From Octopus sinensis (lineage: Eukaryota), in contig NC_043012.1 of assembly GCF_006345805.1 (NCBI RefSeq), positions 40,672,001 to 40,736,000 on the forward strand: a DNA stretch of 64,000 bases, read 5' to 3'. The notes under the pieces are model-generated. The model did no database searches and was not told where the DNA came from. It saw only the letters and a program-made list of their open reading frames with translations. A program made the position numbers and the translations under genes. Below, one piece after another: positions 26,746-64,000 of the stretch (positions are counted from its first letter, which is position 1; every line of letters begins with the position of its first letter).

Positions 26746-27962
26746 TTTATTACACACGTGAGTGAGAACACTTGGAGATATTTTTGGTATCTAACATATG
26801 TCAGATACTGCGAGCGCTGCTTCTGATTGGTCAATCCAGGGTGATGACCCGAGGCCACGGTGACGGCACTACTTTTGTCATTCATAAGTTACAACTAAAC
26901 TTCATTCATTACTTTCATGAGCAGGTAGAATGTTGCCATGTAATTAAACAAACATACTATCTTTTTTATACCAGATATCACTTGAAGTCATATACACATA
27001 AAATATAAACATTTCTGGTGGTAATTCAATTTTTTGTTGCCAAAAAAATCACAACATATTTCGTCTGCTCGTCGATACTCTTGCAGTGCAGGTAGATCTA
27101 TCAACAAGATGGCTACTGTTGTCGATATCAAGGTGAATGATTTTGTTAAGATTGATGGTAAAGATGGGGGAAGAGTGTTATCCGTTGTTCAACTCTTGGA
27201 ACATACAGAATGTTCAAGTGAAGATCAATACTGGCCAAGTTCGACATGTTGCTGGATACAGGTTAACAAAGGTACCTGAAACAGTGTCATCGACGAGTGG
27301 ATTGTCATCGAACCCTAGATCTAACATCCCTGATGAGGTGTACAACGAACTTCTACGTGACAATTTCTTTGATGAGAGCAATAATGAACTTGAATTTCAA
27401 CCGAGGTATGATCATTCTGGAATAGACAAATTCGTTCAAGGTAATCAAAATAAAAACACTCTTTGGAAAACAAACAATGATGTTAAACAATTGTTAGCTT
27501 TCATGGCGACACGCGTCCAATTGAATCTATCGACAAAAGTGAACTTTGTGACATTCTGTGTATTTTCTTTATCTCGTTTTTCTTGAACGTGAACTTATGT
27601 TAACAAAATGTTAAACAGTCATCCGTTATCAGTCATTTCACCTGAAAACTTAGTGCTATAAAGTCGGACTATCTTCCTGCAGCATGACATCTTTTACAGT
27701 TACACATTGTGACATCACTGACGTGAAATCAAGCTGTATTCATGCACGCTTCAACACGATGTGAAGAATTGTTATTGGGTTAATAAAAATATGGTCGTTT
27801 ATTCGTGTGTAATAAATAAAATACCAAACTCATTCCCTATGGATACCGTATTTATTACAACTCGTGGCTTGTAAACGTATCTAACTCGCTTTCGCTCGTT
27901 AGATACGTTTACAAGCCACGAGTTGTAATAAATACGGTATCCATAGGGAATGAGTTGGTATT
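26746..27962 (+). mobile_element. Internally deleted Crypton-like (tyrosine recombinase, DUF3504/QRICH1-type) element with terminal hairpin
   Basis: ORF remnant IDKFVQGNQNKNTLWKTNNDVKQLLAFM; 13-bp inverted repeat tttattacacacg (26746) / cgtgtgtaataaa (27804); about 143-bp palindrome 27820-27962 with loop tcgctttcgctc. Confidence 0.6.
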
Positions 27963-27968
27963 CTCTAT

Positions 27969-29759
27969 TTGTTAAACTGTAATTATGTTTGTGTCTGGCG
28001 TTGTGCTGAAACTGTTTTTCAACATTATGGAGTTGTCACTTAGTGAAGAGAACTCGCCAACTAATGCGTTGATGGATATGTCTGTGTTTGTAACAGGTGA
28101 AGAAGGAAGAATCCAAAAAGTAGCAACCCAGAAAATAAACTTTGCAGAAGCAGCCAGGAAGAAGGAAAGTGCAATTAATATTGAAATTGAGAATCTAAGT
28201 GCTACATGAACTGCGTTTTCAAAGTGTGTCACGAGACCAGACATGTTTTTTTCTTTATGGCAGATTGAAACATAAGGGAGGAATGCATACACCAGTCGAT
28301 TTCTCCCAGGACCCACAATATTTAGTGACCTGTGGAGGGCATATTCACATATTCCAGAGATAGAGGGATACAATTGTCGACAGACCGGTGAACCACAGCG
28401 TCAAGTTTGGTAACTCCATAGATAACACACATACCCAACAAATAGAAAGTACTTGGGTGTGTTTGAAACAGGCTAACAAGCAACGGTGGGGTACACACCG
28501 TTCTATGATTGACTCGTATCCTTGCAAATTCATGTGGTGGTGGTGCAGACACGAGAAAACTGACCTTTGGGAGAAATTGCTGGAAAGCACTGGAAACTTC
28601 CAAGAAAAGTGCATCAATAATTGTTTTTTGACACAAAGAGATAAACCAGTGTGTTTCCTCTGCTCAGAATATAAGGGTCTCACAGATTTTGTAAATGTTT
28701 GCACATTTTGGGTAATTTTAGCCAATCAATAACCAGACGTATTGGTGTCTGTCTCCATAGTAACAAGCCATATAGTCTCTTCAAACTAAGACAACCAAAT
28801 ATGAACCATTTCGTTGCACGTTAGTTGGATTATTCGGTTATTCTGCAAACGTTTTCTTTGGATTGCTATTGTTGTGAAAGTAAGCTGCTCTCTATTTTAT
28901 GTTGTTGATACGATCTGTTTGTTGCCTTTTGTAAAGCAAATTGTTATTAATTCCCCCCTGGAGGGGAATTATTATTGTTAAACTGTAATTATGTTTGTGT
29001 CTGGCTTTTGTGCTGAAACTGTTTTCAACATTATGGAGTTGTCACTTAGTGAAGAGAACTCGCCAACTAATGCGTTGATGGATATGCCTGTGTTTGTAAC
29101 AGTGGTGAAGAAGGAAGAATCCAAAAAGTAGCAACCAGAAGAAATTAAACTTTGCAGAAGCAGCCGGAAGAAGGAAAGTGCAATTAATATTGAAATTGAG
29201 AATCTAAGTGCTACATGAACTGCGTTTTCAAAGTGTGTCACGAGACCAGACATGTTTTTTCTTTATGGCAGATGATGAAACATAAGGGAGGAATGCATAC
29301 ACCAGTCGATTTCTCCCAGGAACCACAATATTTAGTGACCTGTGGAGGGCATATTCACATATTCAGACCGGTGAACCACAGCGTCAAGTTTGGTAACTCC
29401 ATAGATAACACACATACCCAACAAATAGAAAGTACTTGGGCCAGTGTTAAACGGGCAATAAACGAAGCTGCAAGGTCCATGGTTCACTCATATCTGAGAG
29501 TGTATGTGGTGCTTGAGATTGTAATTCGTATAAGAAAACCCTAGGGCAGGGCTTCTCAACAGAAGTGCAGGGGAAAATTTTTGTAATGAAAAGTCATTTT
29601 TCACCTCATTTCTGTTAATTTAATATGTTTTTCTTTATGGCAGATTGAAACATAAGGGAGGAGTGCATACACCAGTCGATTTCTCCCAGGACCCACAATA
29701 TTTAGTGACCTGTGGAGGGCATATTCACATATTCCAGAGATAGAGGGATACAATTTTCG
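27969..29759 (+). repeat. Merlin-transposase-derived complex tandem repeat, block 1
   Basis: Translates through frameshifts as PGxTIFSDLWRAYSHI...VNHSVKF...HTQQIESTW...RWGTHRSMIDSY..KFMW (IS1595/Merlin DDE C-terminal half); near-identical to blocks 2-6. Confidence 0.9.
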
Positions 29760-62332: not shown

Positions 62333-62920
62333 CTAGTACTTCGAGGACAACCTAATACAGGCAAAAGTATGATCGCTCGTAGTATTGCTGACATGTTCAC
62401 ACATGTCAGTACTATTCAGGGAACAAGTAGCTTCCCATTTCAAAATTTAATTAACGTCGAAATCGGATCAATAGAAGAACCGAATTTTAAATTAGAAACT
62501 CTACAAACTCTTAAGAAACTGGCAGAGGATCAGATAATACATCGCACACCACTTAGTATCACATCGAATAATATATTTGATCAAAACGCTCCTCCTGCCG
62601 AAAGATATGCTTTCATAACACGTTATACAGAATACGTTTTTAATGCAGCCGCTCCTTTCTTAAAACACATAAAAAAGAAAATTAATCCATTTGTATGAAA
62701 TATTTTAGGAGTATGACCGACTCAGAAATGAAAAAAGAAGGCGAAACAGACTTCGGTCTCCGTCTCCTTGTGGAGGCGGGGAAACTGATGGAAGCGGAGA
62801 CAGAAAAAAATCCACAACTCCGACGACTCAGACAAAGAAAACGACATCACATGGGAAACACCAAAGTGGCATAAATATAGTAAAGTAATGGAGTCGCAAT
62901 CCGAAGCGCCATCTGCTGAG
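62333..62920 (+). pseudogene. NS1: Second parvovirus-like NS1 fragment (SF3 helicase to C-terminus)
   Basis: LVLRGQPNTGKSMIARSIADMFTHVSTIQGTSSFPFQNLINVEIGSIEEPNF...RTPLSITSNN. Confidence 0.88.
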
Positions 62921-62999
62921 CCGTTAAAAAAAATTTTAATTTTCCCTTGATTATATAAATAGTAATATCGAGGGGAAGTAACAGGAATAAAAGCAAGCA

Positions 63000-64000
63000 T
63001 TCAGGTAGGACTCCACAATGAGAGGTCTTATCGGAATGCTCTCCCCGTGCCTCTTGCAGCATCTAAAAACACTGAGAAGACCGCGGATTCTGCTACCCAT
63101 GAAGTTATTGCCATTGGGCTACCAGAAGACATGGCTGATCTTCAGGCATTTGCTGCCAACTCAGCCAAAGACCTAGGCTGCGTTCCCCCAACGGGTGCTC
63201 TCCGCCTTGGACGACCTGGCCCAAAACCCAGGCTCATCAAGCTGTCTTTTTCAGACCACGCTGAGGCAACCTCATACCATCTGGCCTCAGTTAAAGCTGG
63301 GCGTGAAAATCGAACTACCTTCCGAACACGTCCAGGCTTACCACCCGATGTACGTCCGAAGCTACGTGTAGCGACTTCCCTGAACCGGAACTCAGCTCTG
63401 CAAGAAAGTTTCAGTCTTCGTGAGGATGGACAAACCTGGAGATTTGTTAAGACTGGTGAAACGTGGAAGAGAGATACCAGCTGGTCTGAGTGCTCTCTAC
63501 CCACAATAACTGAAAATGGAAAAAAAACTACAGCAACTCTGGGAAACTAAACCAGAAAAACCTGCCATCCTCTACACACCATCATAAACTGCAAGCAGGG
63601 TACAAATTGTTGTCCTTAAATGCTCGCAGTTTATGCAACAAAATATATCTGTTCAACTCCTACGTCAGAAGTATTGACCCTGACTTCATCACATTCACGG
63701 AAACATGGGCACATTCCTTACTCTGTGATGGGGTTGTCAACATTACTGGCTACAACCTTTTCCGCAAGGATCGCATTAACCGCCGTGGTGGTGGTGTGAT
63801 GGTCTACGTTTGTTCAAATTTTTCGGTAATTCCTTGACCTGATTTGAACGAATCACAAGAAGTTTTTTTCTGTGACATACGTATGACCATGTCAACACTC
63901 CTGCTTGGCATTGTTTATCGTCCCCCAAATTACCATCAAAACACACAGCTTTGCGATATCCTCCGAGCTGCTGCCAGGAAAACAGCCACTTGTTAACTTT
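63000..64000 (+). mobile_element. CR1/L2-type LINE: ORF1 end plus ORF2 APE start (runs off the window)
   Basis: ORF1 VIAIGLPE...LRLGRPGPKPRLIKLSF; ORF2 LSLNARSLCNK, FTETW, GYNLFRKDR..RRGGGVMVYV, LGIVYRPP. Confidence 0.88.

Follow-up and report, generated by a model that had tools for sequence, protein, structure and literature searches.

A one-strand mosaic of transposon and parvovirus-like fragments downstream of DONSON in Octopus sinensis, a candidate piRNA-cluster-like locus with an amplified Merlin-like repeat

The locus described here, part of which lies in a 64,000-nucleotide stretch of Octopus sinensis DNA (the window; NC_043012.1, positions 40,672,001 to 40,736,000), is probably a uni-strand, piRNA-cluster-like trap, in which a recurring internal repeat, termed the scaffold, is a resident passenger; on sequence criteria we put the probability of this reading at about 0.65. 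The locus is a mosaic of truncated pieces of retrotransposons, DNA transposons and parvovirus-like sequence, spanning ~52 kb from 26746 to a window-equivalent position of about 77-78.5 kb (~C16:40750500), and would be expected to yield piRNAs.

Composition and strand of the mosaic

A first-pass annotation of the window had described scaffold blocks alternating with cassettes of about 0.8-10 kb. Six blocks, all in direct orientation, and one sliver are indeed present where it placed them, apart from the start of block 5 (58598 rather than 58571, 58549-58598 being LINE sequence), and the cassettes measure 0.8-10.3 kb (Table 1); the mosaic, however, outruns this pattern, continuing without scaffold for ~16 kb beyond block 6. 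The cassettes are in turn mosaics of several elements, joined without scaffold between them. Pfam matches agree with the classes proposed earlier for two Helitron, two Gypsy, two pogo and two parvovirus-like NS1 fragments, the L1/Tx1-type LINE and Merlin, as does an Atlas match for Penelope; the CR1/L2-like piece has a weak Pfam match (E 0.069) and resembles dispersed LINE copies in their endonuclease. For the Crypton-like assignment of the left-edge element there is a weak lead (Atlas 0.87) and no Pfam match. The ORF at 40784-41569, with no Pfam or PDB match, was put to the EVE solely by its adjacency at other NS1 loci. An Rfam search and a tRNA scan gave no match. Members of a class were earlier thought never to be duplicates; this is so for the Helitron, Gypsy and NS1 pairs within the window (65%, 67% and 69-80% identity), but not for pogo and Merlin, which have 99% and 92% copies at the window edge. 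At least 34 further near-full-length copies of the L1/Tx1-type LINE family exist, at 92-94%.

Table 1. Features of the locus, in window coordinates unless indicated otherwise; phases are positions in the scaffold reference unit.
Feature	Position	Strand	Remarks
Left 37 kb of ~52-kb mosaic	26746-64000	+	Microsatellite/SINE-poor, strand-uniform TE/EVE fragments
Left-edge element	26746-27968	.	Ends in perfect 59-bp hairpin (27827-27956)
Scaffold block 1	27969-29759	+	Phase 861 to 270; H(part) M H M' X M(part)
Cassette 1	29761-35002	+	Element E middle and 3' part, nested SINE, Helitron 1
Element E (non-coding), middle and 3' part	29761-30302, 34372-35002	+	In cassette 1
Helitron 1 (Rep/PIF1)	~31404-33756	+	Pfam; in cassette 1
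Scaffold block 2	35001-36613	+	Phase ~340 to 586; 2-bp microhomology with element E
Cassette 2	36614-42467	+	Helitron 2 and Gypsy RT/RNase H, followed by a parvovirus-like EVE
First parvovirus-like NS1, broken	41786-42445	+	Pfam; in cassette 2
Scaffold block 3	42468-44269	+	Phase 724 to 399; holds reference unit 42500-43870
L1/Tx1-type LINE, 5'-truncated	44268-48868	+	Pfam; 127-bp x4 tandem
LINE 5' part (UTR, ORF1)	48864-51360	-	One minus-strand coding fragment found in window
pogo fragments 1 and 2, Merlin, inverted-repeat element, Penelope	51460-54542	+	Pfam/Atlas
Merlin piece	52089-52291	+	92% identical to 69805-70007
pogo fragment 2	52383-53055	+	99% identical to 63988-64659
Small inverted-repeat element	53075-53542	+	Between pogo fragment 2 and Penelope
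Penelope fragment	53544-54542	+	Atlas support
Scaffold block 4	54539-54820	+	Phase 56 to ~340; headless; 4-bp microhomology with Penelope
Cassette 4	54823-58548	+	High-copy element end, Gypsy, further Merlin-like piece
Gypsy gag/protease/RT	55967-57961	+	Pfam; in cassette 4
LINE 5'/ORF1 fragment	58549-58598 and 60078-60633	+	Split by scaffold block 5
Scaffold block 5	58598-60077	+	Phase ~5 to 482; X M H M; within LINE fragment
Scaffold sliver	60630-60675	+	86%
Element E 5' part	60674-60917	+	After scaffold sliver, before block 6
Scaffold block 6	60916-62332	+	Phase 732 to 427
Second parvovirus-like NS1 (broken) and CR1/L2-like ORF1/endonuclease piece	62333-64000	+
DONSON (housekeeping gene)	Ends window-equivalent 79627 (stop at C16:40751627)	-	10 exons; protein similarity

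The near-disappearance of SINEs and microsatellites in the mosaic, noticed at first pass, is borne out: microsatellite cover falls from 9.9% (1-26745) to 0.2% (26746-64000), and a single SINE lies within the mosaic compared with 49 SINE hits across the 46 kb on its left.

Neither the strand bias nor the neighbouring DONSON gene figured in the first-pass annotation. TE/virus Pfam families are matched by 21 of 98 plus-strand ORFs and by none of 94 minus-strand ORFs. Between 26.7 and 78.5 kb, 18/20 oriented TE/parvovirus-like fragments lie on the plus strand (two-sided p 0.0004), a count that leaves out the left-edge element and element E, which lack a coding orientation, a Merlin-like piece recognised by eye from its motif (58324), and two duplicates (52089 and 63988). 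The two minus-strand exceptions count against the piRNA-cluster-like reading. The bias spans LTR, LINE, Penelope, Helitron, DDE and virus fragments; Gypsy contributes only three of the 20, one of them on the minus strand, so the bias is not the Gypsy-driven one of flamenco. SINE hits in the flanks are mixed in strand (left 25+/24-, right 26+/19-). Such a density of TE remnants, with a strong bias to one strand, is as expected of a uni-strand piRNA cluster.

The stop codon of DONSON, one exon of which is 100% identical to an O. vulgaris protein, lies ~1-2.5 kb beyond the right end of the mosaic; the plus-strand fragments are thus antisense to DONSON and lie 3' of it, as in gene-adjacent mosquito clusters. 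On the favoured reading a long minus-strand precursor would be made, either by read-through from DONSON, to which we give roughly even odds, or from a promoter at the right edge, and would be cut into antisense piRNAs; selection would retain antisense insertions, and deletions would trim insertions to fragments. In favour of it, no minus-strand AATAAA occurs until 5.9 kb beyond the stop codon of DONSON. Two ATTAAA signals ~1.5 kb past it count against this reading, and the depletion of minus-strand AATAAA is not significant (27 vs 33.6 +/- 5.8). Of the bins, 29/30 are covered by contig set X1 and 30/30 by X2, both of them small sets taken, as a guess, to be RNA; one contig from them, equally a guess as RNA and carrying no strand information, unites Gypsy, Merlin-like, LINE and scaffold pieces. 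None of the sequencing runs is on record as RNA; contigs only were used, and their depth was not used to rank expression.

The scaffold repeat and its junctions

The scaffold is a permuted unit of ~1371 bp (~1.37 kb) with an internal duplication. In the reference unit, segment X (1-133) has no match elsewhere and includes a putative hAT-like end; segment M (134-585) corresponds to the 3' half of a decayed Merlin transposase; segment H (585-1133) is the head, and M' is a Merlin copy with a deletion. M matches DDE_Tnp_IS1595 weakly (E 1e-4 to 7e-4, under the gathering score) and shares 70-86% identity with copies dispersed in the genome. The head has CCAAT- and X-box-like motifs; they are part of a dispersed Merlin-associated stretch, since 31 of 40 scored matches were short ones that fell in the first ~110 bp of the head. 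TIRs, an 8-9 bp TSD and an intact transposase, which would be expected of a transposing Merlin, were not found in the scaffold. By these similarities the scaffold is a decayed, rearranged Merlin (ISXO2) derivative.

The scaffold had been regarded as constant, a description that must be abandoned in favour of a permuted unit of differing phase at every end, with blocks of 0.2-1.3 units. All six right ends lie in M, which the passenger interpretation leaves unexplained and which is counted against it. The copies diverge from each other by 0.8-1.7% (~1%); for most of the cassettes tested, the distance to relatives in the genome is far greater. An H-to-X deletion junction is common to blocks 6 and 3, a 37-bp deletion to blocks 6 and 2, and block 1 has several private 1-2 bp indels; diagnostic sites are incongruent among copies, implying exchange. 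An origin via an RNA intermediate was considered and rejected: the H-to-X junction is a deletion with 2 bp of microhomology, placed 13 nt ahead of a GT-donor-like site, and the scaffold includes non-transcribed-looking parts.

Block 5, the only block with demonstrably contiguous flanks (the others being uninformative on the direction of insertion), splits a LINE fragment at a site that 5/5 fetched dispersed LINE copies read across, with 3 bp lost and no target duplication. At eight ends both donors are known, and these have 0-4 bp of microhomology (six) or 1-2 inserted bases (two). Element E, continuous in both copies examined, is here split by scaffold with an overlap, the last 47 bp of its 5' part (in 60674-60917) repeating 29761-29807. 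A 58598-60078 joint, seen in runs X4 and X7, was considered as an empty-site allele at block 5; it was not counted as a polymorphism because dispersed LINE copies have the same join. Local copying extends beyond the scaffold to pogo, Penelope and Merlin fragments.

The sequence shows that the scaffold became a local tandem and that copies of it entered neighbouring fragments, all in one orientation, with 0-4 bp of microhomology and without a Merlin-type target duplication. Copying may have occurred by break-repair, or by re-insertion from tandem or circular templates, and copies may subsequently have recombined, so permuting cassette order, as the division of element E between blocks 6 and 1 could reflect. 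Because block 5 lies within a LINE, element E is split, the ends have microhomology and scaffold-free mosaics exist, the scaffold is not an acquisition repeat; it is a young passenger, locally amplified by a non-transposase route, which may let cassettes be shuffled.

It is unlikely, if the locus is of the same piRNA type, that the scaffold is instead a retained functional module, its head re-initiating transcription inside the locus and/or its copies serving for integron-like recombination, by which the order of cassettes with respect to the upstream promoter is changed. The CCAAT- and X-box-like head motifs would fit such a role, as would the confinement of every right end to M, the exchange implied by the diagnostic sites and the fact that the only other full head likewise starts a short TE mosaic, but the motifs belong to a dispersed stretch, block 4 is headless, and ~16 kb here and four other mosaics do without scaffold. 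The split of element E is explicable by permutation between scaffold copies, yet also fits a local copy plus deletion, or a mis-ordered assembly. An extended version, in which a read-through cluster has domesticated the Merlin-derived repeat both as internal promoters and as integron-like sites that reshuffle cassettes relative to a DONSON-driven start, with cassette order and piRNA dose varying among individuals, is quite doubtful.

A neutral graveyard, i.e. a break- or insertion-prone interval that plays no part in small-RNA production, where orientation is set by how fragments insert or are repaired and not by selection, and where the scaffold is a nascent satellite, seems a rather improbable account. 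It would accommodate the microhomology junctions and the fact that several fragments are directly duplicated nearby; local duplications are likewise carried by Merlin relatives at C23, C14 and C6, and internal tandem repeats are among the features reported for Merlin families (PMC8101967). It does not readily explain why LTR, LINE, Penelope, Helitron, DDE and virus fragments should all share one orientation, nor the exclusion of SINEs and microsatellites, nor the recurrence at other EVE loci.

We regard it as very unlikely that an assembler traversing the repeat created the copy number or the order of cassettes, although errors of order can arise where a repeat of 1.4-1.8 kb occurs three or more times, block 1 has its private indels, and the best run contains only 53% of sampled words. 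Strand bias and DONSON adjacency are independent of cassette order, the joint of cassette 4 with block 5 is bridged by an independent 2765-nt contig (run X2), and runs X4 and X1 contain joints matching the H-to-X and M'-to-X junctions; in X4 and X7 the depth of head contigs, a rough guide only, is ~3-5 times that of unique contigs. Record 8 of X1 extends just 30 letters into the scaffold at 60077/8 and was not taken as a bridge.

Known systems and related loci

In CRISPR and integron cassette arrays a repeat alternates with unique, foreign-derived sequence, as it does here. The earlier proposal of a CRISPR-like memory array, with the repeat as a dedicated acquisition site duplicated at each capture, is nonetheless highly improbable, in that the rough phasing of blocks 1/2 and 2/3 (270 to ~340; 586 to 724) and the restriction of the whole unit to this locus are outweighed by the variable repeat ends, the kilobase-scale, multi-element 'spacers' with scaffold-free junctions, the insertion of block 5 into an older TE fragment, the decayed nature of the unit, which lacks an intact enzyme, and the existence of scaffold-free mosaics. 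No integrase or recombinase was found at the locus, and the scaffold is not evidence of a CRISPR-like machine.

The closest parallels are with piRNA clusters. Mosquito core clusters are reported to be uni-strand, to carry antisense viral fragments and to lie downstream of a conserved host gene, read-through being proposed and the clusters acting as EVE traps (Qu et al., bioRxiv 10.1101/2022.08.22.504762). The octopus locus is similarly uni-strand, EVE-bearing and downstream of a host gene antisense to its fragments; it differs in being from a mollusc, in its parvovirus-like DNA-virus EVEs and all TE classes, in that read-through and piRNAs would here be predictions, and in its amplified internal repeat, none being mentioned in the part of that preprint drawn on here. 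Drosophila flamenco and flam-like clusters are one-strand arrays of TE remnants, found by strand bias, which tolerate a few sense insertions, but have a Gypsy-only bias, extend over hundreds of kb and use their own promoter (van Lopik et al., PMC10643416); the octopus mosaic shares the one-strand remnants with few opposite insertions, yet is ~52 kb long with a bias across many classes. Aedes NIRVS-rich piRNA regions have partial viral ORFs beside Gypsy and within-cluster duplications, for which ectopic recombination was proposed and the CRISPR analogy already drawn (Palatini et al., PMC5497376); by contrast with the octopus, the inserts are from RNA viruses, and no recurring internal scaffold is described in the portion of that paper used. 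Molluscs including Octopus bimaculoides have PIWI genes, and Lymnaea and Crassostrea piRNA clusters show enrichment of Gypsy and DNA transposons (Jehn et al., PMC6128900), with no cephalopod cluster, strand architecture or EVEs described in the relevant part of that work. The scaffold resembles Merlin/IS1016 elements in its weak DDE_Tnp_IS1595 match and, in so far as tandem repeats are reported for Merlin (PMC8101967), in its internal repetition, while differing in its lack of TIRs, TSD and intact transposase. Our literature search found no publication on cephalopod piRNA clusters or parvovirus EVEs, and no match for a scaffold-organised cluster.

Should small RNAs confirm the proposal, the locus would be an example outside insects of a uni-strand piRNA cluster that works by read-through and traps EVEs, and one of at least five such loci that together would hold most parvovirus-like NS1 inserts of this octopus. 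Heritable antiviral and anti-TE memory in cephalopods would then be directly testable, coordinates and a candidate driver gene being given. The scaffold is also a useful record of how such loci are remodelled, by local same-orientation copying and possibly cassette permutation.

Of six parvovirus-like NS1 loci elsewhere in the genome, four (C10, C12, C14 and C27) are in microsatellite-poor mosaics without scaffold, where most matched TE bases are on the strand of the EVE, although C12 has a ~2-kb Penelope block on the opposite strand; the C5 locus is microsatellite-poor only in part, and that on C1 has no mosaic. With both NS1 fragments on the plus strand here, this is the richness in antisense non-retroviral EVEs that a mosquito-type read-through core cluster would have. 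The idea of a piRNA-cluster-like archive, raised at first pass, gains support from these four EVE-bearing mosaics, from the one-strand fragments antisense to a host gene and from the exclusion of SINEs and microsatellites. No host gene was found by Pfam among 122 ORFs at the predicted upstream ends of the C10, C14 and C27 mosaics, which gave only low-complexity or RT matches. At a paralogue at C16:15.1 Mb, 1/116 ORFs matched Pfam; this, the nearest gene found, is SAXO, and it lies on the same strand as the fragments, which argues against antisense read-through there. The genome search for the scaffold found the whole unit only at the DONSON locus; M-type pieces (70-86%) are dispersed. The 5' part of the left-edge element recurs as a 97% copy in the C10 mosaic.

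Strand-biased mosaic beside DONSON

Microsatellite cover drops from 9.9% (1-26745) to 0.2% (26746-64000) and stays at 0.1% over the next 14.5 kb, so that the microsatellite-poor zone extends ~16 kb past the scaffold, the recurring repeat of this locus; beyond, cover is 4.6%. In a scan of ORFs of at least 55-60 aa (excluding low-complexity ORFs and those entirely within scaffold blocks 2, 4, 5 and 6, with one block-2 and two short cassette-4 ORFs added manually), Pfam matches were found for 21 of 98 plus-strand ORFs and none of 94 on the minus strand. Over the next 30 kb rightward 5/96 ORFs matched, three plus and two minus, both of the latter belonging to one Gypsy piece. 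Counted as distinct oriented fragments, the mosaic has 18 plus versus 2 minus (p 0.0004). The 18 are DNA transposons (the scaffold Merlin, further Merlin, two Helitrons, two pogo, piggyBac) and others (two Gypsy, two parvovirus-like, Tx1, four Penelope, identified by Atlas and blastp, a LINE ORF1 piece and a CR1/L2-like piece). SINE matches in the flanks have no strand bias. The Tx1-type cassette is 92-94% identical to an abundant genomic family, and two cassette LINEs are 78-91% identical to families abundant elsewhere.

The gene right of the mosaic is DONSON (PDB match; one exon 100% identical to an O. vulgaris protein), with ten minus-strand exons ending at window-equivalent 79627; read-through RNA would therefore be antisense to the fragments. 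On the minus strand, AATAAA first occurs 5.9 kb past the DONSON end, but two ATTAAA lie at ~1.5 kb. We put at roughly 0.75 the probability that a minus-strand precursor from the locus is processed to piRNAs; that DONSON read-through drives it is an even bet. We regard the locus as a real and testable candidate for a piRNA source of an already known type; what is unusual is its internal repeat.

The mosaic resembles mosquito core clusters in being uni-strand and gene-downstream with antisense viral inserts (EVEs) (bioRxiv 10.1101/2022.08.22.504762), and shares the layout of flam-like loci, not their Gypsy specificity (PMC10643416). For Aedes, the literature on EVE clusters already treats duplications and ectopic recombination and draws the comparison with CRISPR (PMC5497376); structural variation of fly clusters has likewise been discussed (PMC10197564). 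PIWI genes and piRNA clusters are present in molluscs (PMC6128900). In our literature search, with most subscription papers outside it, nothing turned up on piRNA clusters or parvovirus EVEs of cephalopods, or on clusters organized by a scaffold.

The DONSON-proximal end of the mosaic is dominated by three distinct Penelope elements, 65-73% alike. The left-edge element (26746-27968) has a perfect 59-bp hairpin, and its 5' part a 97% copy in the C10 mosaic (L030:2045-4007) in the same relative orientation. In ORF 40023-40820, Gypsy RNase H is apparently fused in frame with parvovirus-associated sequence at ~40395 (junction placed by eye), an arrangement that recalls retrotransposon-virus chimeras. 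The ordinary left flank has a 467-bp direct duplication (12949-13991, 97%), and degenerate (TA/CATA)n sequence, strongly skewed between strands, fills 3.5 kb at 19262-22803, where the long ORFs are low-complexity artefacts.

Coordinates of scaffold parts, fragments, local copies and related mosaics (plain positions, window; C, contigs of the O. sinensis genome, G000; L, genome stretches with their own numbering; phase, position in the scaffold reference unit)
Feature	Position	Strand or orientation	Details
M	phase 134-585		3' half of broken Merlin/ISXO2 transposase; PF12762, E 1e-4 to 7e-4
M'			deleted twin of M; likewise 3' half of broken Merlin/ISXO2 transposase
H (head)	phase 585-1133		opens with ~75-100 bp genome-recurrent stretch
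LINE 5' end	48864-51360	minus	2.5 kb
pogo local copy	52383-53055 and 63988-64659	direct	673 bp, 99%, 11.6 kb apart; no scaffold at ends
Penelope local copy			165 bp, 92%
Merlin local copy			203 bp, 92%
Local tandem			127 bp x4
Three Penelope elements	L001:660-5200 and L002:495-3130		window-equivalent 64.7-77.1 kb
C10 mosaic	C10:97269000-97311000 (L056-L058, L030-L031)		EVE strand/other 5017/575 bases
C27 mosaic	C27:15923500-15933000		EVE strand/other 3329/81 bases
C12 mosaic	C12:57474000-57517000		EVE strand/other 6555/1973 bases
C14 mosaic	C14:52347000-52374000		EVE strand/other 4859/399 bases

Merlin origin of the scaffold

Self-BLAST bears out the first-pass annotation of one repeat in six blocks and a sliver, and shows the blocks to be in direct orientation. 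Relative to a reference unit (42500-43870, 1371 bp), each block is a circularly permuted piece 0.2-1.3 units long, with start phases of 861, ~340, 724, 56, ~5 and 732 and end phases of 270, 586, 399, ~340, 482 and 427; all six right ends lie in M, which makes up a third of the unit. Scaffold accounts for about 8.4 of 51.8 kb of the mosaic. Substitution divergence among five aligned M+H copies is 0.8-1.7%, and diagnostic sites are incongruent among copies.

The unit consists of M, M', H and a segment X, and is of Merlin origin. M and M' are 70-86% identical to dispersed genomic copies. The H opening stretch, which contains CCAAT- and X-box-like motifs, gave 31 short genomic matches among 40 scored, and also lies 5' of Merlin fragments at C1, C2 and C13. 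In genome searches that score only the best candidates, the whole head has one paralogue (C16:15108673, 83%), X has no match beyond the window, and the complete unit was found only here. Three Merlin relatives (L019 on C23, L021 on C14, L020 on C6) each have local direct duplications of 0.5-1.5 kb at 83-97%, a hint that their family is duplication-prone.

Insertion, local copying and cassette order

Block 5 was inserted into a LINE fragment: its flanks (58549-58598 and 60078-60633) are contiguous in all five fetched copies of the dispersed LINE, the site lacks three bases and shows no target duplication. The LINE join occurs in contig sets X4 and X7, two of four compared with 50760-60750. Given this position of block 5 and block ends that differ in phase, the CRISPR-like reading of the repeat proposed earlier is not supported. 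Of the sequencing runs, 20/24 listed rows (11 studies) contain part of 50760-60750, none recorded as RNA; the total sizes of X1 and X2 (74-86 M letters; 29/30 and 30/30 bins covered) suggest transcriptomes, and one X2 contig (2765 nt, 6 differences) is continuous from Gypsy to block 5.

Scaffold ends with both donors known have 0-4 bp microhomology (6/8) or 1-2 extra bases (2/8), and Tx1 and Penelope are truncated where they meet scaffold. Local same-orientation copying is not limited to scaffold, extending to pogo, Penelope, Merlin and a tandem repeat. Very probably, the scaffold spread by repair-type local copying and is a passenger.

A non-coding element, E, is unbroken at C5 and C18 (the two of eight returned loci checked), where window 60698-60917 is followed by 29763-30302 and, at C5, further by 34372-35002. 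In the window its 5' part lies upstream of block 6 and the rest downstream of block 1, the two parts overlapping by 47 bp with 1 mismatch. The three simplest readings are that scaffold insertion split E and later recombination between scaffold copies permuted the cassettes, that the 5' end of E was copied locally with a deletion, or that the assembly is mis-ordered. Permutation by scaffold recombination we hold only tentatively, and slightly on the doubtful side. On C18 (17008649-17216219; L066-L068), E has three equal-scoring copies in 210 kb, from either segmental duplication or redundant assembly.

Related loci

A search with the NS1 fragment returned six other loci. Those on C10, C27, C12 and C14, each with parvovirus-like NS1 fragments, are TE mosaics lying largely on one strand, microsatellite-poor across 20-50 kb, and are candidate sister clusters; their strand tallies are summed matched TE bases, including the NS1 used for choosing the loci. 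No mosaic was seen at the C1 locus, and that on C5 is mixed. The scaffold is absent from all four mosaics in comparisons of the central 20-30 kb and in genome-wide searches, scaffold-related content at C14 being Merlin pieces only, and no upstream gene was found at the three mosaics scanned.

At the head paralogue (C16:15108673-15116000; L010:4673-L011:2000), the head stands first in ~7 kb of plus-strand fragments (Merlin, piggyBac, Gypsy-like and RT), after which come minus-strand LINE pieces. The closest gene identified there is SAXO, with an exon ~8 kb upstream of the head and likewise on the plus strand, so this locus gives no support to antisense read-through. In the C14 mosaic, a Merlin fragment (C14:52367013-52371449; L038-L039) is apparently split by ~4 kb, its parts overlapping by 8 bp.
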